64,000 nt of DNA from a virus. Location of the stretch: positions 192,001 through 256,000 of IMG/VR virus record IMGVR_UViG_3300012642_000011, one strand, 5' to 3'. Both the position numbers and the translations under genes were made by a program. The notes below the pieces were generated by a model. The model did not search any database. It worked only from the letters and a program-made list of their open reading frames with translations, and had not been told where the DNA came from. Positions 24,541-59,120 of the stretch are shown in pieces; positions within the stretch are counted from its first letter, which is position 1, and the number at the start of each line of letters is the position of its first letter.

Positions 24541-24544
24541 ACCT

Positions 24545-37699: not shown

Positions 37700-39250
37700 G
37701 CAGTCGCTGATTTTGTTACAATAATCACAATCCTAACAATTTTTACATAAGAGGATTTTCACGATAGTTCTTGATATAATCAAGCATGAGAAAAACACAC
37801 GCACCATTTAGACTTACGCATTATGAGATCCACGAAGGAAAAGCCACCAAAAAGGCAATCCTTCAAGAACTCACACGTATGAGCACATGGATGCGCGCAG
37901 AACAAGAACACTACTTCAAAAGCGACATGAACCGCATCATCCAAGAATTTCACAAAGGTGAAATCTTTACCGGTTCCCTTAACTCCCTCGGACGAACCCT
38001 CAACATACAACCATACAAGAACTACCCACACAATGCCTACAACATGAGCGAAATGCTCAGAACTTCCGTCCTCGCCCGCACCGCCGGACAAATACAAGAT
38101 GCCGCAATCTGCGAAATCATCAACAAAGACAATCAAAATGATACAAAAAAGATCATCCAAGACTTCAAGAATACTTATCCACACCTCAAAAAACCCACAG
38201 AAGCACACACCACAGCAGTAGCCAAAAGGCTCATCGAGAAGGGGGTCATTGCTGGAGAACCTGCTCCTGATGGGATCATTAACCTCTCCGCCACAGATAC
38301 TCACTATTGCAAAATCACAAGAGATAATCGCAATCTTTATTTAACTATTCGCTCCCTTGGAGAGTTAGGGCGAGTTGTGCTGAAGTTCAGAATCCCCAAA
38401 AGCGATAGGTTTAGCGGGGGTAAAATAACACGACCCAATATTGCTATCAAAAATGGGGAACCTGTTTTCTACTTCACTGTTCAACATGAGATTGAAACCT
38501 TACCCTACAACTCCCGCGTTCTCGGAGTAGATCTCGGCAAGATTGAAGAATATGTTGCTACCATTGTTGATGGTAACGAGATGAGCTATAGCGCTCCTTA
38601 TTATGCTCGAAAGAAAGTGAAAAGCATCACTGAACAGATGGATAAACTATGGAGACAGTATAATTCTAATAAATACAAGAAAGAAATGAATGAGAAGTTT
38701 GGTCATTTAAATCGCGCAAGCATTCATAAGACGGAATGCCAGAGAATCAGGTCAAGAATCACTCGGTTGAAGAATGAGAGAGCACTCACTATTGCTGCTC
38801 ATTTGGTAGAGGTTGCTGAGCGCAATGGCGTTAGCCTGATTTCTGTTGAGCAGTTATCATGGTTAGGGTCTAAAGGTGGCAAGTGGGAGCATTCTGCTAT
38901 TCAGAATGCTATGGAGAATCGTGGGAGACGTTCTGGCATCGGGGTGCGTAAAGTGAGTGCTAGGGGGACTTCCACTCATTGTTCTAAGTGTAATAAGGAG
39001 GCTCGTCAGTCTGGGCGTTTTGTGATTTGTGATTCTTGTGGTTTAAAGTTGAATCGTGATGTGTCTGCTTCTCGTAAGGTAGGCGTGAGGGCTATTCCTA
39101 ACGCTACTAAACAGTTTAACCATTATAAGCAGGTTTTATCGGTGATGACGCGATCATCGAGGCGGGTTACTATGGTTCCCTCTCCTTACCTCCAGAGTGT
39201 TACGATTGATTCTCAGGAATCTAAGAATTGTAACAACCTAGAGTAGCGTC
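37700..39250 (+). mobile_element. low-GC IS200/IS605-family IS1341-like element carrying tnpB only (no tnpA)
   Basis: Abrupt AT-rich island in GC-rich context whose boundaries coincide with the tnpB ORF. Confidence 0.55.
37786..39246 (+). CDS. tnpB: TnpB-like RuvC-fold RNA-guided endonuclease
   Basis: RuvC-I LGVDLGK, RuvC-II ISVEQLSW, zinc finger CSKCNKE...CDSCG, RuvC-III NRDVSASRKV. Confidence 0.75.
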   Translation: MRKTHAPFRLTHYEIHEGKATKKAILQELTRMSTWMRAEQEHYFKSDMNRIIQEFHKGEIFTGSLNSLGRTLNIQPYKNYPHNAYNMSEMLRTSVLARTAGQIQDAAICEIINKDNQNDTKKIIQDFKNTYPHLKKPTEAHTTAVAKRLIEKGVIAGEPAPDGIINLSATDTHYCKITRDNRNLYLTIRSLGELGRVVLKFRIPKSDRFSGGKITRPNIAIKNGEPVFYFTVQHEIETLPYNSRVLGVDLGKIEEYVATIVDGNEMSYSAPYYARKKVKSITEQMDKLWRQYNSNKYKKEMNEKFGHLNRASIHKTECQRIRSRITRLKNERALTIAAHLVEVAERNGVSLISVEQLSWLGSKGGKWEHSAIQNAMENRGRRSGIGVRKVSARGTSTHCSKCNKEARQSGRFVICDSCGLKLNRDVSASRKVGVRAIPNATKQFNHYKQVLSVMTRSSRRVTMVPSPYLQSVTIDSQESKNCNNLE

Positions 39251-39255
39251 CGCTG

Positions 39256-39645
39256 TTGAACCATGACATCGAGAACACATGGGGGCTGCATGTTGTCGCT
39301 GTCAGCGTTGATAACCCGAACCTGCTCATCACCACAGACATGATGGGGGAGAGTTCCAAGGTGCTGGTCATCGACGGCGACATTGACTTGCGCGACATGG
39401 ATGACCCTGATTCCTATGATGAGGATGGGTCCATTGCCTCCGATATGGTCTTCAACATCGTGGATGAGGTGATGGGGGTGATGGAGACCAACATCCTCAC
39501 GGACTTCTATCGCCTCTTCCTTGACAAGAACACCAAGGTCGAACTTAACCCCATGCTCATCACAAGCCTGTCGAAGTCGGGGGTGCGGTTGTATGTCGCC
39601 TCTGGTTACGAACTCAAGGTCATGAAGATCGCCCGTCTCGCCTGA
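39256..39645 (+). CDS. hypothetical acidic 129-aa protein (TTG start per ORF track)
   Basis: GC-rich ORF immediately after tnpB, followed by terminator caagaaccccagtcagacataactggggttcttg (39652-39690). Confidence 0.4.
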   Translation: MNHDIENTWGLHVVAVSVDNPNLLITTDMMGESSKVLVIDGDIDLRDMDDPDSYDEDGSIASDMVFNIVDEVMGVMETNILTDFYRLFLDKNTKVELNPMLITSLSKSGVRLYVASGYELKVMKIARLA

Positions 39646-39863
39646 TCTCAAGCAAGAACCCCAGTCAGACATAACTGGGGTTCTTGCTTGGCTCTCAATC
39701 AGGGGACACAATAAGTGACTTCTTCCAACTCGTAACCTTGAACTCTCCTCGCGCTTTCATCTTCTGTAGAAGTCATGTGTCCTTGGACAGCACGCAACCC
39801 CGACTCTACCATGTGTGAAACAAGGTCGGATCGGGGTTGCGTCGTCTATGCGCAGATGAGGCA

Positions 39864-40166
39864 TCAGCAATCGTCAGAGGAGTAGTAACTATACGTGTAA
39901 TCGTAACAGAAAGAGGCGATTTCCGCATAATCCACATAGTACTTTCCGACCTTCGCAACGCGCTTCGGGCTTTCGGTTGCAACGCGAGTGTTGCTGTTGA
40001 TGGCGGTGGCAATCCTCTCAACGGTATCCTTCGCCTCTTGCGCGCTTATCATGTGCGCTTTGATCACATGCCCTGAAGTGAGAACCACAGTGACATAGTG
40101 ATACAGTTTGTAGTTCTCATCAGTCTCGGCTTCAAGGTTGCTGACGTTCTTCATGACCCTTCTCAT
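39864..40166 (-). CDS. hypothetical 100-aa protein
   Basis: SD aaggagg upstream. Confidence 0.45.
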   Translation of the reverse strand: MRRVMKNVSNLEAETDENYKLYHYVTVVLTSGHVIKAHMISAQEAKDTVERIATAINSNTRVATESPKRVAKVGKYYVDYAEIASFCYDYTYSYYSSDDC

Positions 40167-40462
40167 TCCTCCTTGTGTAGTGTGGCGGTTGCAGGATCTT
40201 CCTTGTCCTGTTGCTGATGTGAGTATAACATGCAGTATGCTTCTTGTACAGTGTCGATTCTAAGACTGATCTCTTCACAAGTTCTTGATCGCTTGCGGTG
40301 AAGCAGCAACAGTAGGGGCGCGAGATGGAAGCACTGGGGGACACAGATTGTATTGAATCCTGCATAGTTCTTTGTGTCGCTCACGGCCGTCATAGGACGG
40401 AAGAGCGACAAGAATATCTCCCTGCAAGAGGGGGTGGGGATTATGCCCCACCCCTCACCTTG

Positions 40463-40777
40463 TCAAGCGACGATTTCGAGGATTTCCTCGCGGTGCGGGT
40501 GAATTCTCACCGTGACCCCATGGAAGTCAAGATCAAAGAACCGCTCGCCCTCGAACGCGTCACGACCCACCCCCACCACGGTGGCGACTCGCGGAGCATA
40601 GGCCCCGAGGTAGGCACCGGCGAAATCGGGATTAATCTTCAGCATCCATCCCACGCACTCGATATGATCGGGGTTGTCTTTCGACTTGATGACGCCGTTG
40701 TGCGACTTGACCAGAGCCAGCACGTCGCCTACCTTGATGGCGGACTGAAAGACGGGAGTGGTGTTGTAGTCCTTCAT
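40463..40777 (-). CDS. hypothetical 104-aa protein
   Basis: Start MKDYNTT after conserved module A. Confidence 0.5.
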   Translation of the reverse strand: MKDYNTTPVFQSAIKVGDVLALVKSHNGVIKSKDNPDHIECVGWMLKINPDFAGAYLGAYAPRVATVVGVGRDAFEGERFFDLDFHGVTVRIHPHREEILEIVA

Positions 40778-40860
40778 GTTCTCTCCTTGAGAGTGATGGT
40801 CTTGGGTTGTTCCCTTGACCTGATGAATCAATAGTACCACGAGGGACGCTCCATGTTCAA
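40778..40860 (-). promoter_or_regulatory. conserved promoter-leader module (copy A): -35 TTGAAC, 18-nt spacer containing GGAGCGTCC, -10 TACTAT, leader stem-loop GGTCAAGGGAACAACCCAAGACC, SD AAGGAGAG
   Basis: Near-identical modules at 44490-44573, 45776-45860, 46231-46320, 51853-51930, 52454-52537, 52948-53035, 53523-53607, 55109-55200, 56213-56296, 57233-57300, 61043-61127 and degenerate copies elsewhere. Confidence 0.65.
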
Positions 40861-40934
40861 GTACCCTATGGAGTAATTTTTACGGCACGCTCGGCAGCAC
40901 AATCGCTGCGTCATTACCGTCTTGTAATGCTTGA

Positions 40935-41016
40935 TTGACGAGATTGCGTTTATGGTGTAGGCTGGTTTCAGAACAACAGATCAGGGCGACTCGCCCCTCA
41001 CAGAAACGAGAACATC
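40935..41016 (+). promoter_or_regulatory. plus-strand promoter-leader family copy 1: TTGACG-17-TAGGCT, leader ..TCAGAACAACAGATCAGGGCGACTCGCCCCTCACAGAAACGAGAACATC-ATG
   Basis: About 50-nt leader 90% identical to 41635-41683, including hairpin GGGCGACTCGCCC. Confidence 0.55.
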
Positions 41017-41481
41017 ATGAGCACGAACTTCTACCTTGTCCCCGCCGTTGCCGTGCAGTCGGGAATGGATCTGTCGTGGCTGACGAAGGTTCATCTGGGC
41101 AAGCGCTCCAATGGTCGGGTCATGCTTCAGGCGCTTGTGGGCGAGTGGGACAACGATAACACTGATGTCCTCAAGAAGCAGTCGGATTACGTGAGGATGG
41201 GTGCACCGCAGTTCTCCTTCATGGACGCTCCGGTGATCGACACGTGGGCTGTGATGCGCTCCATGCTGGTTTCCGGCGAGTTCGACGTGGTTGATGAGTA
41301 TGGACGGAGCGGGCTGATGATGGAGTTCATTAAGAGCGTGGAGGTTGACCCCTCTGGCGCTCACAGGGAGATGATGGACTACTTCGATTCGCTGAATCCC
41401 GGACACTACAGCCTGCCTTATCGTGAGCACCACTTCATGGACGATCAGGGATTCTCCTTCTCCGTCTCGGATTTCTCCTGA
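41017..41481 (+). CDS. hypothetical 154-aa protein
   Basis: ORF after conserved plus-strand leader. Confidence 0.5.
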   Translation: MSTNFYLVPAVAVQSGMDLSWLTKVHLGKRSNGRVMLQALVGEWDNDNTDVLKKQSDYVRMGAPQFSFMDAPVIDTWAVMRSMLVSGEFDVVDEYGRSGLMMEFIKSVEVDPSGAHREMMDYFDSLNPGHYSLPYREHHFMDDQGFSFSVSDFS

Positions 41482-41604
41482 TCGTTTCACGTCGGGCGGG
41501 GCTGGCTACGGCTGGCCCCGTTTGATGTTTGGTCAGATCGGGGGACACAGAATCACGCACTACCCACCCCATCGACTCGGTGACAGATTGAAAGAATGAG
41601 CGGT

Positions 41605-41683
41605 TTGTCATCATTGCCATCATGGTGTAATCTGTTCTCAGAACAACCGATCAGGGCGACTCGCCCCTCACAGAAACGAGAAC
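41605..41683 (+). promoter_or_regulatory. plus-strand promoter-leader family copy 2: TTGTCA-17-TAATCT plus the same conserved leader
   Basis: See 40935-41016. Confidence 0.55.
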
Positions 41684-42175
41684 ATGATGACCCTCACTGA
41701 CAAGGATTACAACACCACCACCGTGGTTGACATGGCGGGAGAGAGCCTCTCGCTGATCGAGTTCTTCGGCGACAATGCCAAGCACGGCTCCGTGGAGTTC
41801 TCTGAGGACGGTGATCGCGCCGATGTGATCATCGTGGAGGATCTGGAGTGGCACCAGAAGCGCGATCCCGAGCTGATGGAGAAGCTGACCGATGAGGAGG
41901 GTTGGCTCACCGAGGGCACCCGTGAAATCATCGCGCGTAACCTGTCCAAGATCGTGGGCGGCTCCGTCGAGATCGAGCTGAGCGAGATGGACGCTCACCC
42001 TGACAGCCCCTCCGTTGCCTTCGTCGCCAGCTACCATGTGAACCCTGAGACCACGCTGGGGACGCTCCACGAGATGTCCTACGGGTTCTACGCTGATGTG
42101 ATCAATGTGACTGATCCCGGCACCTTCGACTCCCCCTACGTGTTCGGCACACTGGCGAACCCCAGCTACTCCTGA
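41684..42175 (+). CDS. hypothetical acidic 163-aa protein
   Basis: ORF after conserved leader; followed by hairpin gatcgacccgc...gcgggtcgatc. Confidence 0.5.
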   Translation: MMTLTDKDYNTTTVVDMAGESLSLIEFFGDNAKHGSVEFSEDGDRADVIIVEDLEWHQKRDPELMEKLTDEEGWLTEGTREIIARNLSKIVGGSVEIELSEMDAHPDSPSVAFVASYHVNPETTLGTLHEMSYGFYADVINVTDPGTFDSPYVFGTLANPSYS

Positions 42176-42424
42176 ACGCACGGATCGACCCGCTCTACTC
42201 CTCATAGGGTGGGCGGGTCGATCTTTTGCGCAGGAGCAGGGGACACAGAATGTGAGCATTGACTGCATCTGCACCTGCTTCCCGTGGTGGTGCCACAAAG
42301 CCCCCACTGCTTCCGGGCGCACCACACAGCGCCACACGGTTCTGACTTGCACTCGGCTCATCATGCTGGTAACCTGATTCCTGTCAGCAACCGCTGGCAC
42401 TGCACTCTGAACAAGGAGACCATC

Positions 42425-42844
42425 ATGAGCGTCATCACCTACCGCTACGACCTGTCCGACCGCGACAACGTCATCGCCACCTCTGCGGAGGTCATGCTGT
42501 GGCAGGCAGGCGAGATGATGGATGAGAACGGCGAGATGCTCGCGCAGAAGTGGGAGGATCACTTCGATGAGTCCAACCTGACCGATGAGGCGCGTGAGCG
42601 CATCGTGGAGGACTTCGCCGCGTTCGTGGGCAACGTGAGCGACGGCGACCTGCTGGCCTACGAGGCGGCTGGTGAGACCTCGGCGCAGATGATCCATGAC
42701 TACTGGCTCACGCGCAACAGGCACGGTGCTGGCTTCTGGGATCGTGGTCTGGGGGAGCTGGGGGATCGCCTGACCGAACTGGCGCAGTCGGACGGCACCT
42801 ACAACCTCTTCGAGACCAACGACGGCGAGTGGGACTACATGTGA
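42425..42844 (+). CDS. highly acidic 139-aa protein (candidate DNA-mimic / anti-restriction-like)
   Basis: Start MSVITYRYDL after aaggagaccatc; about 30% D/E; motif RNRHGAGFWDRG. Confidence 0.45.
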   Translation: MSVITYRYDLSDRDNVIATSAEVMLWQAGEMMDENGEMLAQKWEDHFDESNLTDEARERIVEDFAAFVGNVSDGDLLAYEAAGETSAQMIHDYWLTRNRHGAGFWDRGLGELGDRLTELAQSDGTYNLFETNDGEWDYM

Positions 42845-43062
42845 TCCAGTGAGGACGCTCCGCGTGCTACCCGTGACACCACAGGAAGCACGCGGAGCGG
42901 TCGCCGTGAAGGGCTGGCAGGGCGGGAGGCTTCACGGTCTCCCGCTTTTTGTGTCAAGGGCAAGGGGACACAGTTCTCACTGAATCATGCATGCCCTCGT
43001 GTGGCATCCACGGCGGTGATGGTGTAGGATGGGGGAGTCCCACACGGCAAGGAGCGATGACG

Positions 43063-43260
43063 ATGGCGACCATGACCACCGATGTCACCACGGTTCGCAT
43101 TGAGCACATGGTGCGCGTGACCACGTTCGGTCGCAACCACGCCTTCAGCACGCCTCCCATGCTCGCCTCCAAGGGGCGACAGTGGGCGGAGATGGAGTCG
43201 GGTGAGCCGGACACGGTGAAGGTGGTTGTGGAGTGCGATGCCTACTGCTGGTGCCAGTGA
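43063..43260 (+). CDS. small 65-aa protein with C-terminal CDAYCWC
   Basis: SD aaggagcg; start choice between two close ATGs is uncertain. Confidence 0.35.
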   Translation: MATMTTDVTTVRIEHMVRVTTFGRNHAFSTPPMLASKGRQWAEMESGEPDTVKVVVECDAYCWCQ

Positions 43261-43453
43261 GGTGTGTAGGCGGGCGTGAGGGTGAGGGTGGGCAACAGGG
43301 GACACAGAATGTGTTCTTATGCTCGCGCTGTCGCCCTGACGACTGAAACAATGGGAGAGCGCCCTGTTTGACTTCAGTGTGAATGTGTGGCAGACTGTTC
43401 TTCAGTAGGTCGGGGGAGCCGCCCCTGACCATCTACTCTCAAGGGGAGAAAAC

Positions 43454-43906
43454 ATGTCGAAGACCGACTGGACTGCTTTCGTGGATGCCGCCGACTCCAT
43501 CCGCACGCGTGGCGACGAGCAGACGCACCTGATCTACCCGGACGGCACCTTCGAGGTGTTCGAGCGCTACAGCACCGACGCTCCCGACACCCCCGAGGAC
43601 GCGCTTCAGTGGGAGGGCAAGGACGACGAGGAGCGCGACGTGATCACGGGCGCGCAGGGGTGGAGCATCGCCGAGGGAATGAGCGGGGCGTTCCGCTACG
43701 ACGGCCCTCTGATGCACGAGTCGGAGTTCTTCTCCCCCGGCATCCTCTCCTGCCTGATGTGGGACCGGGACGCTCCCCTGCTGGTCGCCACGGCGCATGT
43801 GGCTGACTACTCCCCCGAGGCGTACGACGAGGGCGAGGAGGACTCTCAGGTGGGCGAGGTGTTCTCGTGGGTGACCCTCTACCGCGAGCCGGAGACCGAC
43901 GACTGA
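43454..43906 (+). CDS. hypothetical acidic 150-aa protein
   Basis: SD aaggggagaaaac-ATG; terminator hairpin ccccgcctgactcccacgaggatgatggcgggg downstream. Confidence 0.5.
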   Translation: MSKTDWTAFVDAADSIRTRGDEQTHLIYPDGTFEVFERYSTDAPDTPEDALQWEGKDDEERDVITGAQGWSIAEGMSGAFRYDGPLMHESEFFSPGILSCLMWDRDAPLLVATAHVADYSPEAYDEGEEDSQVGEVFSWVTLYREPETDD

Positions 43907-44108
43907 CCGACACTACCAACGCCCCGCCTGACTCCCACGAGGATGATGGCGGGGCGTTGTGTTGTGGGGGGAATCGGGAACAGGGGACACAATATGTGTC
44001 ATCAACGACAACGGGTTACCACGGCGAACAGGGTGACGCTGTGTGGACATGCGAACGCCCCGCCCGTGCTCCTTGGTCCAAGGGTTCAGGCGGGGCTGTC
44101 GTGCTGGT

Positions 44109-44489
44109 TCAGTTCTCCCAGTAACGCGGGTTGGTCACCTCTTCGCCGTCGTAGTCGAGAGCAAGGATGACGCGGCCGATCTGATCGGCGTAGATGTTGG
44201 AAGCGGTGTAGTGAGTGACGATCTCGCTTGCGCGCTTGTAGGTCACAGTGACCGTATAGGTGTCGGAGAACGTGCAGACGATCTTCACATCCATGATACG
44301 CGCGCAGCCGGAGCGCTTGCCGGTCTTAGTGAAGGGGAGAATGTTTGCATGGAAGGAGAGGCTCCCGCGCTCTTCCGAACCGTAGAGGAAGTCACGCGCA
44401 CCCACGGCGGCGAAGTTCCAGAAGCCGATCTGCTGACGGATGGTATCGGCGACCTGCTTGTACTGGGTATCCTTGATGGTCTGCGACAT
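44109..44489 (-). CDS. hypothetical 126-aa protein
   Basis: Module B upstream; shares its first 6 codons (MSQTIK) with the unrelated 53148..53522 gene. Confidence 0.5.
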   Translation of the reverse strand: MSQTIKDTQYKQVADTIRQQIGFWNFAAVGARDFLYGSEERGSLSFHANILPFTKTGKRSGCARIMDVKIVCTFSDTYTVTVTYKRASEIVTHYTASNIYADQIGRVILALDYDGEEVTNPRYWEN

Positions 44490-44842
44490 GTTCTCTCCTT
44501 GAGAGTTGTGGTCTTGGGTGGCTCCCTCGACCTGATGACTCTTACTCTACAGCACAGGACGCTCCACGGTCAAGTCCCCTATGGAATAATTTTTACGGCA
44601 TGCTCGGTAGGGTAACGCTTAGGGGACACAATGCGCATGGGGCAACCAAGCGCAATGGCGACTGTGAATTCAGGATTGAACCGTAAGTTAAAATCGACAT
44701 TTTGACATAAAATAGCGAGAAAATGCTATAAATGAATGGCGATTTTAACTTCTTTTGCGCAGCCATGGGCGGCATCACGCTTGTCGTGATGCCCCGCCGT
44801 CCTCCCTTGTCGAGAGCGAAGGCGGGGCGCGTGCTCACATGA

Positions 44843-45226
44843 TCACTCGGCGGGAGCGAGGAACGCGGCGACCTCATCATCGGTCAGGGACTCGTAGTGC
44901 GAGTAGCCTTCCTCATCCACGCTCTCACGCACCACCAGCACGGGACCGAACGGGTAAGCCCCCTGCATGATGCCCAGACGGTCGATGACGTGCTTGTGCG
45001 GGTTGGGGCGACCGAACTTGTAGATCCCCTCATCGTCCGCCATGACCTCGATGCCGTCGCCGTAAGCATCGCGCGGCATGTAGGTGATGGTGCCCAGACC
45101 GGCGACCTCACGGAAGGCGGGGAAGTTGTAAGCCTCGGGGTCGGCGTTGATGGTCACCTCGATGGCGCGCGGGGTGGAGTCCAGATCGCCGGGGACGAGA
45201 ACAGCCTTGATGTTCTTCGTGGTCAT
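44843..45226 (-). CDS. paralog family B member 1 (127 aa)
   Basis: MTTKNIKAVLVPGDLDSTPRAIEV... about 65% identical to the 53148..53522 product; real start at Met30 of the tracked ORF after SD ggagagagacc. Confidence 0.5.
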   Translation of the reverse strand: MTTKNIKAVLVPGDLDSTPRAIEVTINADPEAYNFPAFREVAGLGTITYMPRDAYGDGIEVMADDEGIYKFGRPNPHKHVIDRLGIMQGAYPFGPVLVVRESVDEEGYSHYESLTDDEVAAFLAPAE

Positions 45227-45436
45227 GGTCTCTCTCCTTGAGAGTCGTGAGGCTTGCCGGTTGCTTACCCCTTGATGAATCCCACTATACACGACAGTAC
45301 GCGCAGCCGTCAAGCGTATTATCGCCCCTCCAGCAGAGCAATCACTGTATGCTGTGAGGGGACACAGAATTCGAGTTGACGGTTTGAAAAAACCGCCCCA
45401 GTGCTCATAATCAGCACTGGGGCGGCGGGGCGCTTG

Positions 45437-45775
45437 TCAGCGTTCGAGACCAGCCTCGAACGCGGCGATCACGAGGTGTGACACAGTTGAGTAGACATCC
45501 TCGATCCCGCTGTAGCCGGAGCTGTGACCCTCACCATAGGAGTAGTTAAACACTCGATCAGCGATGTGGTCGGGAATGTCGTCGGTCAGGTAGTCATCGC
45601 GGAACTGCTTAGCGTGGCGCTCCCGTTCCTCGCGCTCGATTCGGTAGCGCTCCTCACGCTCGATGCGACGCGCCTCCTGCTTGGCGCGCTCCTCTTCCGC
45701 CTGGGCTTCAGCGAGAGCCTGCTTGGCGGCGTCGAGGGCGGCTTCGGCTGCGATCACTTCTGGGGACTTCTGCAT
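45437..45775 (-). CDS. hypothetical coiled-coil 112-aa protein (AEAQAEEERAKQEARRIEREERYRIEREERER)
   Basis: Conserved module upstream. Confidence 0.5.
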   Translation of the reverse strand: MQKSPEVIAAEAALDAAKQALAEAQAEEERAKQEARRIEREERYRIEREERERHAKQFRDDYLTDDIPDHIADRVFNYSYGEGHSSGYSGIEDVYSTVSHLVIAAFEAGLER

Positions 45776-45999
45776 AATACTCTCCTTGTGGAGTCGTGGT
45801 CTTGGGCTGCTCCCTTGACCTGATGAATCAATAGTACCACGGGGGACGCTCCGCCGTCAAATCTATCAATCGTGGTAGTGCTATAACATCTCGGATTGGT
45901 CGAGGCGCTGGATGACTTAGGTATCAGGGGACACAAGAATTGCGACAACGAGGATAAGAACACGCCCCCATCCTCGCGGTAAGGATGGGGGTGTGTGAG

Positions 46000-46230
46000 T
46001 CAGAATCGGGCGGAACCGGCGAGGATAGCCATGGTGTCAGCCATGGTCTCGCTGTAGCGCATCTTGATCTTCGCGCGCAGGTGCTTCATTCGCAGGATGC
46101 GGCGGATGTGATGCTCGTCCAGTTCAGTCTCACCGGCGAGGGTGTCCAAGTAGATGCCGGAGTACTCGTTGTCGATCTCTTCGGTGATAGCGTCGATGCG
46201 GGCGGCGTCGTCGGCGGTCATCTGCTTCAT
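46000..46230 (-). CDS. hypothetical 76-aa protein
   Basis: Conserved module upstream. Confidence 0.5.
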   Translation of the reverse strand: MKQMTADDAARIDAITEEIDNEYSGIYLDTLAGETELDEHHIRRILRMKHLRAKIKMRYSETMADTMAILAGSARF

Positions 46231-49640: not shown

Positions 49641-49663
49641 TGTGCTTGATAACCTTGTGCTCG

Positions 49664-51248: not shown

Positions 51249-51453
51249 GGTGCCAGCCTACAGGACAAGAGGAAATAATGCAAGCCTGATGCTCTGCTTG
51301 TTTTTGCCTCATATTGTGTCCCCTTGGGCGTGCCATCATGTGCGCGCGTGGGGACACAGAATTCGAGAGTAGTCATGAACCACGATGAGCACACACGCGC
51401 CGCCCCGCCGTTCATCCTCTGGGGACTACTTGGCGGGGCGAGCGGCTTGCAGG

Positions 51454-51852
51454 TCAGGCGTCCTCGTTCTTCTTCAGGGCGTTCTTGTCAGCGTCGATTC
51501 CGAAGAGGTCGAGGTGGGTATAGAATACCGCGTAAGCCTTCATCTTTGCCATCTCCTCCACAGTGAAGCGGGGATTGAGTTCGGAGGTGAAAGCGACAAT
51601 CTCGATGACGTAGTTGGACGCGCGGTGCTTCAGGTGGGCGATCACCTTCTCCGCAGAGTAACCCTTGTCCAGAAGCTTCTGCGCGCTGTCAGCAAGAGCC
51701 TTCTGCGCGGTGTAGAACTGCATCGAGGCAGCACGGGAGCCGATGCTGGTCACGATGCCCGCGTCCAGATCGTCCTTGATGATCTGCTTCTGGTTCTCGT
51801 AGAGGGCGTTGGCGTCCTTGATGAACTTGTTGAGTTCGTTGGCGATGGTCAT
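51454..51852 (-). CDS. hypothetical 132-aa protein
   Basis: Conserved module F upstream. Confidence 0.5.
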   Translation of the reverse strand: MTIANELNKFIKDANALYENQKQIIKDDLDAGIVTSIGSRAASMQFYTAQKALADSAQKLLDKGYSAEKVIAHLKHRASNYVIEIVAFTSELNPRFTVEEMAKMKAYAVFYTHLDLFGIDADKNALKKNEDA

Positions 51853-52084
51853 GGTATCTCCTTGAAGAGTGGTGGGTCTTGCCGGTTGCTTGCCCCTTGA
51901 TGACTCCTACTCTACCAGCAAGACGCTCCATTATCCAACCCCAGAGCAATATTGTGTTCTTCAACAGTAAGCGCACACTCGGATGGACGAGTCGCTCTGG
52001 GGACACAAATTAATGCTTAAGTATCCTATACGCACGCATGCCCGCCACCCCTCTGTCGTAGAGTTCTGGCGGGCATGCTGCATG

Positions 52085-52453
52085 TCAGCGAGAGGTGTTC
52101 AGAACCGAAAAAAGGTCATTCATAAGCATGGCGGCAACACGGTTCCGTGACGCCTCATCTGCAGGCACGGGAACGTCCGACATTGCCATGTGGATGAGCC
52201 TCTTCGTCTGGTCAGACAGGAACTCCTCGGCGATCTGGGTATCGGTCGCACCGGCGTCACGCTTTCTCTTGAGGTTGCCAGCAATCATCTTACGATGGCG
52301 GGCGTCCATGAAAGCCTTGAGGTCATGAGAAGAGATCGTTTCAACAAGGTTCGATGTGCTTGCGACCTCTACAGCCGACTTGTAATCCCCCTCAGCACGA
52401 TTGATGAACTGGTCGATGATGAACGTGACGATGTCCTGCTGATCCTGCTCCAT
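52085..52453 (-). CDS. hypothetical 122-aa protein
   Basis: Conserved module G upstream. Confidence 0.5.
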   Translation of the reverse strand: MEQDQQDIVTFIIDQFINRAEGDYKSAVEVASTSNLVETISSHDLKAFMDARHRKMIAGNLKRKRDAGATDTQIAEEFLSDQTKRLIHMAMSDVPVPADEASRNRVAAMLMNDLFSVLNTSR

Positions 52454-52537
52454 GATGTTCTCCTTGAGAGTGTTGGTCTCGGGCTGTTCCCTTGACCTGA
52501 TGAAATGATCTTACCACACGGGACGCTCCACGGTCAA
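52454..52537 (-). promoter_or_regulatory. conserved promoter-leader module (copy G): -35 TTGACC, 18-nt spacer with GGAGCGTCC, -10 TAAGAT, leader hairpin, SD
   Basis: -10 at + strand 52508-52513, -35 at 52532-52537. Confidence 0.65.
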
Positions 52538-52642
52538 TCTTTCCATGAAACTTCATGCATGAATGGTTCCGCGTTCGGACCTATTCATGCATGGCCCCTC
52601 CCCTGTGGGGACACAATATGGGTGACCACTGTGCGCACGATA

Positions 52643-52686
52643 AAGCCCCGCCGTCCCTCCGTGATGGAGTTCAGGCGGGGCGTCGG
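52643..52686. terminator. type-2 hairpin: stem GCCCCGCC/GGCGGGGC with structured loop GTCCCTCCGTGATGGAGTTCAG
   Basis: Immediately 3' of the 52696 stop; identical element at 53095-53138; family also at about 43915, 44055, 44778, 51395, 56380, 56785, 60660, 61240, 63403. Confidence 0.6.
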
Positions 52687-52695
52687 GGGTCAGGA

Positions 52696-52947
52696 TCAGA
52701 GCGTGATGACCTCGATAGCGGCGATCTCCGACAGGTTGATGAACAGGTCAGCGGTGCTCTTGACGACGGCGGGGTACTTACCCTGCGCGTGGTCATCGGT
52801 CAGGATCTGGAAGCCCTCGGCGGACATGCGAGCATCCTCCAGCGGCTCGGGGGCAGTCTTGACCTGCACGCCGGACTTCAGCGTGATGACGACCTGACCC
52901 TCGCGGTGATCGAACTTGTAACCGATAAAGTTCTTGTTCTGCTCCAT
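52696..52947 (-). CDS. hypothetical 83-aa protein
   Basis: Conserved module H upstream. Confidence 0.5.
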   Translation of the reverse strand: MEQNKNFIGYKFDHREGQVVITLKSGVQVKTAPEPLEDARMSAEGFQILTDDHAQGKYPAVVKSTADLFINLSEIAAIEVITL

Positions 52948-53147
52948 GATGTTCTCCTTGAAAGTGTTGGTCTCGGGTGGCTCCCTTGACCTGATGGAAT
53001 GACCTTACCACACAGGACGCTTCTTGTGCAACCCACATTGGAGGAGAAGGGAGGGGACACAAGATGTTGCCACCAGAGCACTACGAACATGACAAAGCCC
53101 CGCCGTCCCTCCGTGATGGAGTTCAGGCGGGGCATTATCGGAGTGAG

Positions 53148-53522
53148 TCACTCCACGGGAGCGAGGATCTGGGCGAGCTCTTCATCGGTCAGCGAGTCGT
53201 AGTGGGACTCACCCTCGTCATCCACGCTCTCGCGGATCACCAGCACCGGACCGAACGGGTACGTTTCGTCCATGAGACCCAGACGATTGATGACGTGCTC
53301 GTGGGGGTTGGGAGTGTCGAACCTGTAGATGCCCTCGTCGTCGGCCACGACCTCGATACCGTCACTGTAGTTCTTACGCGGCATGTAGGTGATCAGACCC
53401 AGCCCCGCGACCTCTCGAAAGACGCGGAATGCGCCAGCACCCTCTTCGATGGTCATTTCCACGGCACGCGGGGCAGAGTCGAGGTTGGCGGGAACAAGCA
53501 CGGCCTTGATGGTCTGCGACAT
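53148..53522 (-). CDS. paralog family B member 2 (124 aa)
   Basis: MSQTIKAVLVPANLDSAPRAVEM...; module I upstream. Confidence 0.5.
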   Translation of the reverse strand: MSQTIKAVLVPANLDSAPRAVEMTIEEGAGAFRVFREVAGLGLITYMPRKNYSDGIEVVADDEGIYRFDTPNPHEHVINRLGLMDETYPFGPVLVIRESVDDEGESHYDSLTDEELAQILAPVE

Positions 53523-53607
53523 GGTATCTCTCCTTGAGAGTTTCGGTCTTGGGCGGTTCCTTCGACCTGATGAGACCATCCTACATGATAGGACGCTCCA
53601 CTGTCCA
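53523..53607 (-). promoter_or_regulatory. conserved promoter-leader module (copy I): TGGACA-18-TAGGAT
   Basis: -10 at 53578-53583, -35 at 53602-53607. Confidence 0.6.
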
Positions 53608-54151
53608 GACCGCACCCAGTCACAGTTGTCGTGGCTGCAGTTACCACTAAAGACATTTTGCTTCCTCAAGGTGTCTTTGAAGTCAATCTGTCCATGAAAG
53701 AGAACGTGATGAATACACTTTGACATTTTGACTCGAAGACTGATTGGACAAATTGATCTGGGGGTGATCCGTAGTGACCCTCCGAACGTCACCACGGCCT
53801 CGTGCATGCTGTGCGGCGCTGTAAGCCTATTTGACGCACTGACATTGCCTCAGCGTCCAAGAGTGCCCTCAGATGTCACCAGAGGCTCACAGAGGCGCTC
53901 ATAGGCTCCTGACGCACTCGGAGAGGGCCACGTGCTCTCGTGCTCTCGTAAAGTCTCCTGCACCCTCACAGGGACCATAATGACCATGTGATGCCATGTG
54001 AGCACGATGGGGCAGGCGCGCAACTGCTGCATCTATCCCTGACGGTGAGAGCGGATAGTGGGCGAGTTGCCATAGGGGACACAAAAGATGATACAAAGAG
54101 ATGACCCCGCTTTGCGATTCAGGTCAGAATCGCAAAGCAGGGTCTAACAGG

Positions 54152-54490
54152 TCACTTCTCGGGGAAGGTGTAGGTCGCCAGCAGTCGCGGAGTCTTGCGC
54201 CCCTCGACGTTCTCGAACACGCGGTACTCAGCGACGGCACCGAACTCGCCCATGCTCTCTGCAACCTTATCGAAGATGTCGAAGGGGTGATGGACGGCAA
54301 AGAGATGCTTTGTAGTCGTCTCGCCATTGCTACCCTCGAAGTAGAACTTCTTGTCGCCATGAAGGCGCACCTTGCCGAAGAACTGGAAAGGGTGGTTCGG
54401 GTTGTTGTTGATTACGCCCTTGTAGTTGACGGTCTTGGCGAACAGGCTGCTCTCCGTGGGAGTGACGTGGGTAACGATGGTCTCAGACAT
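54152..54490 (-). CDS. hypothetical 112-aa protein
   Basis: SD gaggagaaaccATG. Confidence 0.45.
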   Translation of the reverse strand: MSETIVTHVTPTESSLFAKTVNYKGVINNNPNHPFQFFGKVRLHGDKKFYFEGSNGETTTKHLFAVHHPFDIFDKVAESMGEFGAVAEYRVFENVEGRKTPRLLATYTFPEK

Positions 54491-54892
54491 GGTTTCTCCT
54501 CAGAAAATATGGCAGGGTCTTCCTGATCCAGTAATTCGATTCTACTACATCCTCTCTTGCGAGTCAACAACTCCGATGAGACGGTACTGGTGGTTGCCCT
54601 TGCCGTGCCGCTGACACCATTCGGGGACACAGTTAGCACATTGCAGCAAGAGCCACCAAGTAACCCGTAAGGGTGAAAGGTGGCGTAGTGGTCAGTGCTG
54701 ATCAGGTCGATTCCCTTGATGGTGCGCATGATGAGTGCCCTCTTCCTGTTGAGTGATCTTTGTCCATGCAGTCTATCAGGGATGGGGCGAGAGTCAAGTG
54801 GATGTAAAGGTTCCCGAGGGGACACAAGATGATCAGAAAAACACAAGACCCAGCAATTCAACTCACTGGGTCTTGTGTTTGTGCGTGTTCCC

Positions 54893-55114
54893 TCAGTCCT
54901 CGATGTCCTCTGCAACGGTGTAGTCCGCGCTCAGCGACACCCACTTTGCGCCACGGTAGTTGCCCGAGGACAGCGCGACATACTTCATACCATCGAGCTT
55001 AGCCGACTCCAGCATTTCGATCAGCTCGTCGATGCTCTCCGCTGCGTCGTCCAGCGAGTAGGCCAAGCCGCCGCCGCTGAGGATGATGGTATTCTGATCG
55101 GTGATCTCGCTCAT
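54893..55114 (-). CDS. hypothetical acidic 73-aa protein
   Basis: Module J upstream. Confidence 0.45.
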   Translation of the reverse strand: MSEITDQNTIILSGGGLAYSLDDAAESIDELIEMLESAKLDGMKYVALSSGNYRGAKWVSLSADYTVAEDIED

Positions 55115-55201
55115 GGTCTTCTCCTATGAAATGGTGGTCTTGGGGGATTCCTTGACCTGATGATGAAACTCTACACCACAGGACGCTCCATATGCAAACA
55201 A

Positions 55202-55615
55202 TCAGTTCATCGGGATCATCTTGTCCCAGTCACGGACGAACGTCATGTCCTTGAACGCTTCATGATGAGTATCGCCATAGCGGACGCGCCACTGCTGCAT
55301 CGGTACCAGCCCCTCCCCATTGCGCACCAGTCGCTCGTATCCGGTTTTCGTGTAGCACCCCGACGTGTAGAGAATCTTGCCGTCCTCGGACTCCTGGACG
55401 CGCCGGATGATCTCTTTCGCCAGCCCCTTCCCACGATACTCGGGGCGCACCTCAAGGTCGCACAGAGCCAGTCCCTTTTCCTCGCCCTCCACCACGTGAT
55501 TGTCGTCGTGGTGGAAGTAGCAAAGGTAGGCTACCGGAACACCGTCGATCAGCATGAACGTGTCGATCATGGAGTTCGCCCAGCGCTTCTCCTTGTTAAG
55601 TGTGATGGTGCTCAT
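55202..55615 (-). CDS. GNAT-family N-acetyltransferase
   Basis: Acetyl-CoA-binding motif A LEVRPEYRGKGLAKEII (R-x-x-G-x-G/A). Confidence 0.6.
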   Translation of the reverse strand: MSTITLNKEKRWANSMIDTFMLIDGVPVAYLCYFHHDDNHVVEGEEKGLALCDLEVRPEYRGKGLAKEIIRRVQESEDGKILYTSGCYTKTGYERLVRNGEGLVPMQQWRVRYGDTHHEAFKDMTFVRDWDKMIPMN

Positions 55616-56011
55616 GATGTTCTCCTATGGGGAGTGCGGGTTTATTGCTGATGAGTAGCGGGGCGGGGAGAACTACCACTCCCCGCCCCGCCGTGTATCC
55701 GTTCAGGCGCTTGTGGGCTTTCCACAGTGACCATCAACCCATTGGGGAGGATGATCCACCGCATTTGAGCTTCTTCGAGAGGCTTGAGTGGCGCTCTGTC
55801 CTGTTGTCTTGATCGTAGCACCCTTGTGCTCATGGTGTCAATGCGAGTTCTCCACGGACAAGGACGCTCCACTGGTCTTGGTCTGTCACGCGCTGTTCTG
55901 GGTCTCGCTACTGTCCATCTCGTTCTTCATAGAAGGGACACAATCCCTGCACAGCGAGAGAGGGCGGGGCTTCCACCGTCTCCGGCTTCCGCCCCGCCCT
56001 CTTGGGTGAGG

Positions 56012-56212
56012 TCAGTAGTCCTCGTCCCGCGTCTCGACCCACTCGGCGTAACTGGACGGACTCATCCATTCAATCCGCAGCGGCTGGCCGGAGGCGCTGA
56101 ACCACTGCCCGCACGAGCACTGCTGGTCGCCCTGACCACGGTAGCACTCCACGGTCTCGCCGCAGCCACACTCCCACGTGTGGGTGGGGGTCTCGAACTC
56201 GTAATCCGCCAT
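56012..56212 (-). CDS. 66-aa zinc-ribbon-like protein (WECGCGETVEC...CSCGQWF)
   Basis: Module K upstream. Confidence 0.5.
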   Translation of the reverse strand: MADYEFETPTHTWECGCGETVECYRGQGDQQCSCGQWFSASGQPLRIEWMSPSSYAEWVETRDEDY

Positions 56213-56296
56213 GCTGCTCTCCTTGAGAGTGGTGGTCTTGGGATGTTCCCTTGACCTGATGAGACCAGACTACACGATAGGACGCTCCACTGTCCA
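56213..56296 (-). promoter_or_regulatory. conserved promoter-leader module (copy K): TGGACA-18-TAGTCT
   Basis: -10 at 56267-56272, -35 at 56291-56296; leader hairpin GGTCAAGGGAACATCCCAAGACC. Confidence 0.65.
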
Positions 56297-56433
56297 GTCG
56301 AAAACCGAGAATCTTTCTCCAGAAGGCAGACGGAGCGATCAGGGGACACACATCGAGGCGCGTGTGCGAAGCAGAAACGCCCCGCCATCGTCCTCTCGGG
56401 TGAGGAGTCAGGCGGGGCGGTCTCGGAGTGCTC

Positions 56434-56601
56434 ACTTGCTCCCGAAGGCACTCTGTGCGTTGCGGATCGCGGCGCTCTCACGAACCTTCTCGTCCGCCTC
56501 ATCACGCTTGCGAAGAGTCTCGCGCACGGCACGGCCCCACCGCTTGTTCGACTCGCTGATGACGCGGATGCTGATAGTGTTCTTGCTCTCGTTCTCCATG
56601 A
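56434..56601 (-). CDS. 55-aa basic protein (MENESKNTISIRVISESNKRWGRAVRETLRKRDEADEKV...)
   Basis: Hand translated; SD aaggagagcatc. Confidence 0.35.
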
Positions 56602-56842
56602 TGCTCTCCTTGCTCGGAGTTTGATTGACATGACCATGATAGAACGCGTTTGATGTTCATGTCAAGAGGTTTTCCAGAATTCCAGAGAGCGATCTTCGTG
56701 ACGGACTCATCGAGTGAGCGTGGTGGTTGCTGTCTGGGTGAGCAGGGCAAGGGGACACAGTATTCGTGAGCGCGGTAACGCGATGACACCGCCACGCCCC
56801 GCCTGTACTCTACCACAGAGGGACGGCGGGGCGCTGTGTTAT

Positions 56843-57232
56843 TCAGTCCGCGATCAGAACACCCTGCTCAACAAGGTAGTCGATCATCTTGGAGCGCACC
56901 AGCACCCAGCGGGAGCCATCTCCCTCGAAGTCATCACCGATGGTCTCCCACAGGAACTTGGAAGCATCCTCCATGTGCTCGATGCCGTTCGTGTAGAAAG
57001 TCGGAGCGGACTCAAGCGCCTGCTCACTCATGTCCACACCCAGTGCCACCATGATGACACGATCCTCGGGGCCGTCGTAACCGTTGTCCGTGGCCTCCAT
57101 GACCTCGGGGACGGGCACGCCGCGCTCAATGTGAGCCTCGAAGACCTGACTGATGAACTCGATCTCCACCGTGAGGTCGGGGAAGTTGTCGATAGCGTCG
57201 AAGACCTGATGATCGGTGACCTGCTTCATGTA
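56843..57232 (-). CDS. hypothetical acidic 129-aa protein
   Basis: Start MKQVTDHQVF; module L upstream. Confidence 0.5.
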   Translation of the reverse strand, partial: YMKQVTDHQVFDAIDNFPDLTVEIEFISQVFEAHIERGVPVPEVMEATDNGYDGPEDRVIMVALGVDMSEQALESAPTFYTNGIEHMEDASKFLWETIGDDFEGDGSRWVLVRSKMIDYLVEQGVLIAD

Positions 57233-57403
57233 TCTCTCCTTGAGAGTCGTGGTCTTGGGGGAATCCCTTGACCTGATAAGGCCATCGTAGCGCACGTAGT
57301 CCGCTTTGTCGAATCTGCAGACGGGGTAGCCCCAGAGGCCAAAGGGGACACGGAATCAAGGACAACAGAACAGGCGGGGAGTACTATCACTCCCCGCCTA
57401 CTC

Positions 57404-57715
57404 TCAACCTGCGATGTTCTGGGCGCGCTCGAAGTCCCGTGCCAGATTCAAGTCATCCAGAGCAGTGCAGATAGCCTCGTTGTAGGCGGAGATAGCCTTG
57501 CGGGTGCTCTTGTACGACTCGTCGCTGTGCCAGAGAGCGTAGAAGATGTTCAGCGATGTGAAGACGAACGTGACCCCAGAGGTGATGTACAAAGCAACAA
57601 CCAGCGCCACTGCCTCCATCACGCCGAGCACACAGGCAAGCGCGAACACGAGACCACCGGCGATGAAGAACTTAAACGCGCGATGTGAAAAATCATTGGA
57701 CATCTTGCGGTGCAT
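57404..57715 (-). CDS. small 2-TM membrane protein
   Basis: Hydrophobic helices FFIAGGLVFALACVLGV / VALVVALYITSGVTFVF. Confidence 0.4.
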   Translation of the reverse strand: MHRKMSNDFSHRAFKFFIAGGLVFALACVLGVMEAVALVVALYITSGVTFVFTSLNIFYALWHSDESYKSTRKAISAYNEAICTALDDLNLARDFERAQNIAG

Positions 57716-57774
57716 GCGGGCGGCGGCATGGAGCCTCCGAGCACGCGAGGCATCAGGGGTTTGCGGTGTAGAAA

Positions 57775-59120
57775 ACAGATGCTTAATTACATGCTTTTTG
57801 CTATACTATAATGTAGAAACGGGAAGAAGGTGAAAAATGATACTCACAGAGAAGCATGTGATTCGCAAAAATCACATGAACTTCAATGAGTGCGATCATC
57901 TCGCTTTCTTGAGCAAGAATCTTTACAATTCTACTCTTTTTGCCGTTCGCCAGCACTACTTCAGTAATGGTGAATACCTTAACTACAATAATGCAAATAA
58001 AATCTTCACCATAGAGGGACAAAGCGACTATGTTGCCTTGCCCAGAAAAGTCAGCAAACACACAATGATGCTGGTGGATCGTTCTTTCAAATCCTTTTTC
58101 AAACTCTTGGAGAAGAAAAGAAATGGAGAATATGACAAAACCGTAAGAATCCCAAAATACTTAGACAAAACAAAAGGTCGTCAAGTTGTTCATTATGAAA
58201 AAGGGGCATTGTCCTTCAAGAAGAAGGAGGGGTACCTCTATCTTTCACAGACTAACATATATTTGAAAACCAAGGTAACTTCGGATCAAATTCAATTTGC
58301 TAGAATCGTCCCTCGGGGTGAGCATTATGTGATTGAGGTGGGATATAGGGTTCCTCAGGTAGATAATCTTCACGATAATGGGCGATACCTGTCCCTTGAT
58401 CTTGGGGTGAATAATCTTGTCACAGCAGTGAGCAATGTGACAGCCCCGATACTCTTCAATGGGCGACCATTGAAGAGTATCAATCAGTTTTACAATAAGA
58501 GATTTGCATCCCTTCAGTCTAAACTCGGAGAGGAGGTGAAAAGCAGTAAGCAGATCAAGACTTTGCATCAGAGAAGATTGAACAAAATCAATGATTATCT
58601 CCACAAAGCCTCAAGAATGTTGGTGAATCACGCAGTTGAAAACTCTATCAATACTATAGTTATTGGATACAATAAAGAGTGGAAACAAGACATCAACATT
58701 GGGCGAAGAAACAATCAGAATTTTGCCTCTATTCCTTTTGCAAGGCTTATTGAGATGATTGAATACAAGGCTTCTCTTGTTGGTATCAACACCATCAGAC
58801 AGGAAGAGTCCTATACTTCCAAGTGTTCCTTTCTTGACGATGAGCAGGTGAGGAAAGCCAATTCCTATTCAGGAAGAAGGGTGAGTCGAGGTCTTTTCAA
58901 GACTGGGCAAGGACTTCGCGTTAATGCTGATGTGAATGGTGCCTTGAATATCTTAAGAAAAGCACTGAAAGTATCATGGAATGACCAGTTGTGGTCAGAC
59001 TGTGTAGCGGCGTGCAGTGTGCCGAAGCGGGTCAATATACCAGCTTGAAATGTTAATTCATGTTTATCATGTTTTCAACTAACTGTCCATCTTCTCGTTC
59101 ATCGTAAGTATTTTTTCTCC
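57775..59120 (+). mobile_element. second low-GC IS1341-like tnpB-only element (about 1.35 kb, with about 75-nt AT-rich tail after tnpB stop)
   Basis: AT-rich island; tail ...gtaagtattttttctccttgggaatag is the likely right end / omega-RNA region. Confidence 0.55.
57837..59048 (+). CDS. tnpB: TnpB-like RuvC-fold protein (zinc-finger Cys largely lost)
   Basis: RuvC-I LSLDLGVNNLVTAV, C-terminal YTSKCSFL...NADVNGALNILRK; only one Cys where CxxC...CxxC is expected. Confidence 0.75.
   Translation: MILTEKHVIRKNHMNFNECDHLAFLSKNLYNSTLFAVRQHYFSNGEYLNYNNANKIFTIEGQSDYVALPRKVSKHTMMLVDRSFKSFFKLLEKKRNGEYDKTVRIPKYLDKTKGRQVVHYEKGALSFKKKEGYLYLSQTNIYLKTKVTSDQIQFARIVPRGEHYVIEVGYRVPQVDNLHDNGRYLSLDLGVNNLVTAVSNVTAPILFNGRPLKSINQFYNKRFASLQSKLGEEVKSSKQIKTLHQRRLNKINDYLHKASRMLVNHAVENSINTIVIGYNKEWKQDINIGRRNNQNFASIPFARLIEMIEYKASLVGINTIRQEESYTSKCSFLDDEQVRKANSYSGRRVSRGLFKTGQGLRVNADVNGALNILRKALKVSWNDQLWSDCVAACSVPKRVNIPA

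Follow-up and report, generated by a model that had tools for sequence, protein, structure and literature searches.

What do two tnpB genes do in a phage genome when neither has a tnpA gene beside it? This question is raised by a 64,000-nucleotide stretch of viral DNA (IMG/VR record IMGVR_UViG_3300012642_000011, positions 192,001 to 256,000; hereafter the window, position 1 being its first letter), in which two open reading frames (ORFs), 37786..39246 and 57837..59048, had been predicted to encode distinct TnpB-like RuvC proteins lying, with no tnpA, in AT-rich islands of a high-GC array. Both ORFs are present and match family hidden Markov models, their products (TnpB1 and TnpB2) are unrelated at the BLAST level, and the 64-kb window contains neither a serine-recombinase tnpA nor a second copy of either TnpB nor any further element end. 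The GC content falls to 0.37-0.47 over 37.6-39.2 kb and to 0.36-0.45 over 57.8-59.1 kb, with flanks of ~0.55-0.60. Since window 1-26 kb is also at ~0.42, low GC alone is no proof that the islands are foreign to the phage. Our reading, to which we assign a probability of about 0.6, is that both loci are intact IS607-derived modules of a tnpB gene and a guide RNA, lacking tnpA and most likely cutting element-free alleles in the service of retention or homing.

Element 1 and the phage gene that it splits

The features of the first locus are as follows.
37695..39249, + strand: element 1, an IS607-derived tnpB element without tnpA, 1,555 bp, bounded by the joint, the left-end alignment and the end of homology to a relative (L024)
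37626..37694, + strand: 5' fragment of the split phage gene, 23 codons, with the ribosome-binding site GAAGGAG in front
39250..39645, + strand: 3' fragment of the split phage gene, called as a 129-amino-acid ORF from TTG 39256; no family match
37691..37694, + strand: CCGT, candidate target-adjacent motif (TAM) of element 1, abutting the left end
37695..37785, + strand: left end of element 1, beginning CACCCGCAGTCGCTGATTTTGTT, with a GATATAAT box ahead of the ATG
37786..39246, + strand: tnpB1, 486 amino acids, with RuvC residues D249 (GVDLG), E355 (SVEQL) and D425 (NRDVSAS) and zinc-finger residues C399/C402/C415/C418
39139..39160, + strand: conserved hairpin whose loop is ACGCG, within the likely scaffold of element 1 at roughly 39060-39249 (5' limit approximate)
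39250..39269, + strand: CCGCTGTTGAACCATGACAT, predicted guide of element 1, the first bases past the family-level right end ..AGCGT

Element 1 is a proven insertion whose presence is polymorphic among sister phages. Joining 37626-37694 to 39250-39645 gives an uninterrupted in-frame ORF of 154 codons, with the insertion point separating codon 23 from codon 24 in a phage gene of ~152 amino acids. A search for empty sites, as had been suggested, found them here at the protein level: a protein of 152 amino acids (P0275) matches the hypothetical joined protein with 99% identity over 98% coverage and reads NALNR|PLLNHD across the joint, exactly as predicted. The 90% cluster of P0275 contains eight distinct uninterrupted variants of 152/153 amino acids on ~23 contigs, with the same junction, as well as the interrupted 129-amino-acid form on ~28 contigs, including contigs of 332 kb and 437 kb. 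Uninterrupted alleles read IASL and interrupted ones ITSL, a difference indicating that the insertion marks one lineage. The junction is clean in the uninterrupted alleles, with no target duplication, and the element ends are ambiguous within a tetranucleotide, CGTC, that is present at both junctions; these two properties together fit a serine-recombinase crossover. The joint DNA is reconstructed as ..AACCGT|CCGCTG.. (predicted contiguous sequence ..CTGAACCGT|CCGCTGTTGAACC..). Exact look-ups of the flank proteins recovered only contigs that carry the elements, and a search of IMG/VR did not find the element flank proteins. Some short contigs that seemed to lack TnpB1 were rejected as empty sites, for they begin inside tnpB1. 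Three contigs (L029, L030 and L032) begin at the same base in tnpB1 (window ~38855), and one of them carries a Nextera adapter at its 5' end (L032, positions 1-45), which marks the shared start as an assembly artefact and not an empty site.

The boundaries of the element are shared with its relatives. A left-end motif, C-N5-6-WARTC-N3-RATTTTRTT, is common to element 1 and to the left ends upstream of tnpA in L024, L025 and L197, and the start of the left end aligns in four independent insertions, directly after a flank ending in CYGT. The GATATAAT box, which resembles a -10 element, was read by eye and was not called by the promoter scan. On the right, DNA homology to L024, a relative of 59% identity, stops at 39249-39253, reading ..GAGTAGCGT(CCG), and the right end of two other TnpB1 relatives reads ..GGGAGCGT, with divergent sequence beyond.

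The 3' part of tnpB1 is unusually conserved at the DNA level relative to L024, above the level of the region upstream. Within it, the stem of the hairpin at 39139-39160 covaries in five family members, with compensatory changes in five of its nine pairs. This covarying hairpin and the conserved 3' terminus give partial support to a guide-RNA scaffold in element 1. The hairpin lies in the stretch that encodes the C-terminal 41 residues of TnpB1 (446-486; window 39121-39246), which are modelled as disordered, with a predicted local distance difference test (pLDDT) score below 50; conservation there probably acts on RNA rather than on protein. The disordered tail also holds the family-invariant residues T455-R456, which coincide with the ACGCG loop of the hairpin.

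The predicted guide, CCGCTGTTGAACCATGACAT, is identical to the opening bases of the 3' half of the split gene and to the sequence directly after CCGT in the uninterrupted allele carried by sister phages; by the published logic of TnpB elements (PMC10690162, PMC10055086), 39250..39269 would serve as the guide. The left flanks of four insertions read CCGT, CTGT, CCGT and CCGT and the right ends GCGT, GTGT, GCGT and GCGT, a consistent difference at position -4. This difference parallels a published IS607 element, in which the TAM is TGGG and the scaffold ends in UCGG (PMC10690162), and on these grounds C[C/T]GT is proposed as the TAM of element 1.

TnpB1 itself has a single Pfam domain, Cas12f1-like_TNB (2.6e-11, 44 bits; cutoff 26.3). 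In 20 members of its family D249, E355 and D425 are invariant, giving the full D-E-D triad, and the four zinc-finger cysteines (CxxC..CxxC) are invariant in the family as well. Its AlphaFold model has a pLDDT of 77, and the full-length fold matches Cas12f, the TnpB of ISFba1 and Fanzor2. A word-indexed search returned six relatives, while an exhaustive profile search gave ~25 full-length clusters at 50% identity, beyond which the matches merge into general TnpB/Cas12f. The family had no matches in deposited phages or IMG/VR, nor in scans of JGI metagenomes. TnpB1 is predicted to be a compact, canonical-site nuclease from a small, barely sampled family. The 451-amino-acid version of TnpB1 on some contigs reflects another start call on identical DNA and not a mutation.

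Element 2: a rearranged TnpB and its structured RNA

The second locus comprises the following features.
57770..59086, + strand: element 2, a module of tnpB2 and a guide RNA; the right boundary is defined, and the left one is placed provisionally from the step in GC and from a GT that recurs at the right end
57766..57769, + strand: GTGT, candidate TAM of element 2, abutting the provisional left boundary
57837..59048, + strand: tnpB2, 403 amino acids, with D188, Gly277 at the canonical RuvC-II Glu position, an alternative Glu324 (EESYTSKCSF) and D365; C330
58967..59086, + strand: omega-RNA scaffold of element 2, four helices, ending ..CUAACUGU, located by covariance model
59087..59106, + strand: CCATCTTCTCGTTCATCGTA, predicted guide of element 2, the first bases past the scaffold end

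Element 2 carries a conserved structured RNA. The original prediction had placed an omega-RNA at its 3' end, at 59049-59120; a scaffold does lie at this end, at 58967-59086, where it overlaps the ORF. Relatives of TnpB2 share a four-helix architecture ending in ..(G)UAACURU, and two covariance models of it were built without the window sequence or a relative of 94% identity (L022). Model R1 (nine relatives) gave a single match in the window on either strand, at 58967-59086 (+), with 18.9 bits, and model R2 (20 relatives) a single window match at the same positions, full length, with 38.9 bits and E ~1e-4. In the alignment of the 20 sequences, compensatory changes are seen in 24 of 28 pairs, and 94% of the cells pair versus ~40% when the partners are slid; the alignment was fitted to the model, so these figures lean towards the structure. 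Searches against Rfam returned nothing for the whole window at gathering thresholds, only noise and a 13.9-bit echo of IS605-orfB-II (gathering score 88) in E-value searches of both 3' ends, with RAGATH-18 unmatched, and nothing at E <= 0.01 in twelve relatives. Promoter and terminator scans did not rise above shuffle expectation, and TATAAT boxes seen by eye were not called.

Given that the scaffold overlaps the end of the ORF, the guide of element 2 would begin at 59087. The sequence past AACTRT is not conserved among TnpB2 relatives. It had also been proposed to check whether the sequence beyond the right ends matches other sites; 18-mer probes covering 39253-39270 for element 1 and 59091-59108 for element 2 (the latter overlapping the predicted guide) found nothing in the 64-kb window beyond their own flanks.

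On the right, the boundary of element 2 is clade-wide: the end ..AACTRT stops at 59086, and the sequence of L022, found in another context, is homologous from 57824 to 59090, 42 nucleotides past the stop codon. On the left, this homology begins 13 nucleotides before the tnpB2 ATG; upstream of that point, L022 carries coding sequence for the C-terminus of a serine-recombinase TnpA. At 57769/57770, where the GC step lies, the left flank is GGTGT|AGAAAAC, and the GT recurs in the right end, AACTGT|. As with element 1, the candidate TAM (GTGT) and the right end (CTGT) are distinguished by their base at position -4. A hypothetical empty junction reconstructed from these ends would read ..GCGGTGT|CCATCTTCTCG...

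TnpB2 matches Cas12f1-like_TNB (5.2e-11) and OrfB_IS605 (5.2e-21) in Pfam and scores 166.2 bits on NCBIfam guided_TnpB (cutoff 100). Its full-length homologues number more than 7,900 at ~55% identity, and one (P0001) reaches 94%. Its clade is commonplace in phages, with TnpB2-like genes in at least 32 deposited phage genomes, including Staphylococcus, crAss-like, Lak, Nodularia, Bacillus G and Helicobacter phages, and at least 540 stretches in IMG/VR. In an alignment of 18 members, D188, G277-x-N279, W282-K283-Q284-D285, E324 and D365 are invariant or nearly so, and C330, the only conserved cysteine, is present in all 18. Profile-to-PDB alignments place the G of viGyN in TnpB2 on the RuvC-II Glu of Cas12f MEDL, and the alternative Glu324 lies ~47 residues downstream of Gly277. 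In 'rearranged' TnpB proteins, the RuvC-II Glu has given way to Gly, and another Glu is predicted to take over its role (Altae-Tran et al. 2023, PMC10691335). The zinc finger is reported lost in large TnpB branches (PMC10691335) and is thus no strict criterion for a TnpB.

The zinc-finger cysteines of the second TnpB had been described as mostly lost, which is correct, and the loss had been taken to suggest decay or domestication, which is not borne out: it is clade-wide, the clade having more than 7,900 members, and TnpB2 differs from its 94% relative by 52 synonymous and 32 non-synonymous changes, an excess indicating purifying selection. As both the missing cysteines and the Gly at RuvC-II are clade-wide, decay of TnpB2 was rejected. 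As to disrupted RuvC residues, named in advance as the mark of a dead relic, TnpB1 keeps D-E-D, and TnpB2 keeps D188 and D365, its Gly277 being the clade-wide state and the invariant Glu324 the proposed substitute.

As a separate observation, a perfect 15-bp inverted repeat with a 4-nucleotide loop lies inside tnpB2 at 58448-58481 and encodes PILFNGRPLKSIN. L022 retains it, with both differences in the loop, and 119 other clade members lack it at the homologous position. All other perfect palindromes of at least 12 bp in the window are intergenic.

IS607 descent and proposed function

The label IS1341-like, under which the two elements had been introduced, could not be retained. Relatives of both TnpBs are encoded directly downstream of a MerR/HTH+Resolvase serine-recombinase tnpA; a Y1 gene was not seen, and every relative with a transposase had a serine recombinase. 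The suggested comparison with the IS1341 and ISDra2 families returned the ISDra2 TnpB only as a distant profile match (1.6e-6). For TnpB1, a MerR-HTH+Resolvase tnpA overlaps the start of each of three relatives (59%, 37% and 34% identity), which places the family in the IS607 lineage. For TnpB2, two relatives of 57-58% identity (L115 and L116) have an HTH+Resolvase tnpA directly upstream, and across the clade tnpA is adjacent at 10 of 74 viral loci and 17 of 72 genomic loci, tnpB-only copies being the rule. From the serine-recombinase tnpA ahead of relatives of both, the two elements are taken as tnpA-less IS607-type derivatives and not as complete IS607 elements. The IS607 hallmark of no target-site duplication with the same core at the junctions is found in element 1 and is only inferred for element 2.

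Two observations on relatives of TnpB2 may be added. In two tnpB-only copies from IMG/VR (L131 and L132), a 3' remnant of tnpA (..YGKR..KELE*) lies ~60 nucleotides upstream of tnpB, showing that IS607 elements have repeatedly been truncated on their 5' side in phages. L115, a 128.7-kb ENA contig, carries its 58% relative of TnpB2 with an intact tnpA in a long run of small same-strand ORFs and looks like another large phage; the left and right ends share a 17-nucleotide repeat, GAATGTCATGTTATTTT.

The two elements resemble the IS607 elements with omega-RNA, namely the Clostridium botulinum IStron and ISFba1 (PMC10690162, PMC11061315), in that the relatives have a serine transposase upstream, the junction of element 1 is precise with CGTC on both sides and no target duplication, the scaffold end resembles the left-flank motif but for one position, and the guide RNA overlaps the tnpB 3' end. 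They differ in that the window copies lack tnpA, the replicon is a jumbo phage and the junction core is ..GT instead of the usual GG. Unlike the IS607 IStron, neither has a group I intron and neither RNA matches an Rfam family; an IStron was rejected, as there is no Rfam intron in the window and the left ends measure only ~91 and ~67 nucleotides. TnpB2 is like the RIIr TnpB branches (PMC10691335) in its Gly at RuvC-II, its alternative Glu and the clade-wide loss of the C4 zinc finger, and its clade is like them in variable serine-recombinase association and frequency in viruses; it is placed in this class and not in a named branch. ISDra2/IS605 TnpBs belong to the same superfamily and share the guide-RNA logic and the tnpB-only organisation, but a Y1 HUH transposase takes the place of the serine recombinase there. 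Phage homing endonucleases (T4 Seg/Mob, PhiPA3 gp210) occupy the same niche, as selfish nuclease genes present or absent among close phages. They target the allele lacking them by protein recognition, whereas recognition here would be RNA-guided, and, unlike intron-borne homing endonucleases, element 1 brings neither an intron nor an intein by which the interrupted gene could be restored.

According to the mechanism that we propose, each module would transcribe a guide RNA whose scaffold overlaps the tnpB 3' end and whose guide consists of the 16-20 nucleotides of flanking phage DNA past the right end. The TnpB-RNA complex would then recognise the element-free allele, where the TAM of the left flank is directly followed by the guide match, an arrangement that should occur only after excision or in a co-infecting phage without the element. 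Cutting by TnpB, followed by recombinational repair from an element-bearing genome, would copy the element back, either retaining it or, when it is copied in during co-infection, homing as an RNA-guided analogue of the phage homing endonucleases. It has been reported that IS605 and IS607 TnpBs cleave donor joints and drive retention or homing, that the TAM equals the transposase target and that the scaffold end resembles the TAM end (PMC10055086, PMC10690162). Because the left end of element 2 cannot be demonstrated, this element may either work likewise or be stranded.

A stronger version for element 1 is offered tentatively, at rather less than even odds: it may be an active RNA-guided homing drive in a natural jumbo-phage population, cutting and then converting or eliminating element-free genomes. 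If this is true, TnpB would be an RNA-guided equivalent of T4 Seg/Mob and PhiPA3 gp210, and recombination alone could be enough for tnpB modules without tnpA to pass from phage to phage. This would account for the commonness of transposase-free tnpB genes in large phage genomes and likewise for the hundreds of tnpB-only members of the TnpB2 clade among viral contigs. The role of TnpB in recutting a vacated site was shown in engineered bacterial assays; element 1 would be a natural case. With filled and empty alleles in close phages, a codon-exact junction and a predicted guide equal to the empty-site sequence, it makes RNA-guided homing between phages directly testable.

Several results count against retention or homing by intact modules. 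TnpB1 scores 71.6 bits on guided_TnpB, under the cutoff of 100. For TnpB2, E324 is a proposed catalytic substitute, and the activity of the rearranged type is itself proposed from structure models in the literature. The empty site of element 1 is known at the protein level only, and its joint DNA pattern was not found in JGI contigs or IMG/VR. No empty site of element 2 was found, because all 23 contigs with the downstream flanking gene also carry the element; the claim that both elements were inserted into the array is supported, and for element 1 it is demonstrated by uninterrupted alleles. Only the 13 nucleotides upstream of its ATG match L022, so that element 2 may lack a functional left end and be immobile. 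As the window has no tnpA, either element would depend on a transposase in trans for excision and for new transposition. Lastly, single-sequence folding of the 3' ends was not significant for either element (z = -1.9 and -0.9).

One rival is likelier than the others, though we consider it unlikely: the elements may be stranded, immobile passengers, intact by recent descent and nearly neutral, element 1 having knocked out a dispensable accessory gene. The absence of tnpA from the window would fit such passengers, as would the loss from element 2 of everything upstream of the ribosome-binding site relative to the tnpA-bearing relative. Most contigs from the exact-protein look-ups have both element regions at 100% identity, which fits one recent lineage, and the interrupted allele is nearly devoid of diversity, against eight variants of the uninterrupted one. 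Neutral passengers are harder to reconcile with two intact ORFs of 486 and 403 codons that keep all family-invariant residues, with the synonymous excess of TnpB2 and with a guide-RNA scaffold kept to model-level similarity. Moreover, the dominance of tnpB-only copies in the TnpB2 clade, in hundreds of phage contigs, argues for persistence without a linked tnpA.

It is more improbable still that the phage has domesticated the modules as tools, either for cutting diverged competitor phages or for guide-directed repression of promoters as in TldR. There are precedents for both, since TldR regulators, which derive from TnpB, are phage-encoded (PMC10705468) and phage homing endonucleases can be weapons between co-infecting phages (10.1101/2023.09.30.560319). 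Element 2 is on every recovered contig with the flanking gene, and an AT-rich stretch that includes a TATAAT box has taken the place of its 5' region. The nuclease-dead repressor was rejected, however, as the catalytic residues are not inactivated, unlike those of TldR, and within the window the guide probes find no match beyond their own flanks; nor was any consistently associated partner gene seen.

Like Cas12f (type V-F), TnpB1 has a RuvC and zinc-finger core and a compact size; unlike it, TnpB1 stands in a transposon context without a CRISPR array. That TnpB1 is a miniature Cas12f-type CRISPR effector is hardly credible: in the PDB, Cas12f proteins are its best matches by sequence and by fold, and its guided_TnpB score is under the cutoff, but no CRISPR-like direct-repeat array lies in 36-41.5 kb (nor any repeat array in 56.5-60.5 kb, both regions being scanned as a test for type V-F), its relatives are fused to IS607 tnpA genes and tnpB1 sits within a precisely bounded insertion.

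The jumbo phage and its small-gene array

The source replicon of the modules described above is a jumbo phage, and the elements sit in its accessory small-gene array. Exact-protein look-ups matched window proteins on a metagenomic contig of 332,269 bp, with further matches on contigs of 64-143 kb. Genes for a topoisomerase II, a DnaB-like helicase and a terminase-like protein lie in the window's low-GC part, and the array neighbours of the elements include Pfam Phage_gp86, Phage_VG64 and Lsr2-like proteins. No close relative of the phage was found in the INPHARED collection.

The phage shows two composition compartments, one of ~0.42 GC (1-26000) with replication and packaging genes and one of ~0.55 GC (27000-64000) with small ORFs. 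Between them, a 6-kb stretch (20000-26000) has an extreme strand skew, with a GC skew down to -0.66 and an AT skew up to +0.58, and covers two long minus-strand ORFs.

The array is further marked by the motif GGGGACACA, for which a guide or TAM relationship with the TnpBs had been suggested. Such a link did not emerge: the motif was linked to neither guide, TAM candidate nor insertion site, and even when up to two mismatches are allowed, both insertion sites and both reconstructed joints are free of copies. It occurs 34 times in the window versus 0.55 expected and extends to WGGGGACACARWAWK, with 30 of the 34 copies on the + strand, in intergenic gaps (window 30604-63377). This strand bias holds despite array genes being called on both strands. 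The motif often stands just after a + strand terminator-like hairpin and looks like a cassette-boundary or transcription signal.

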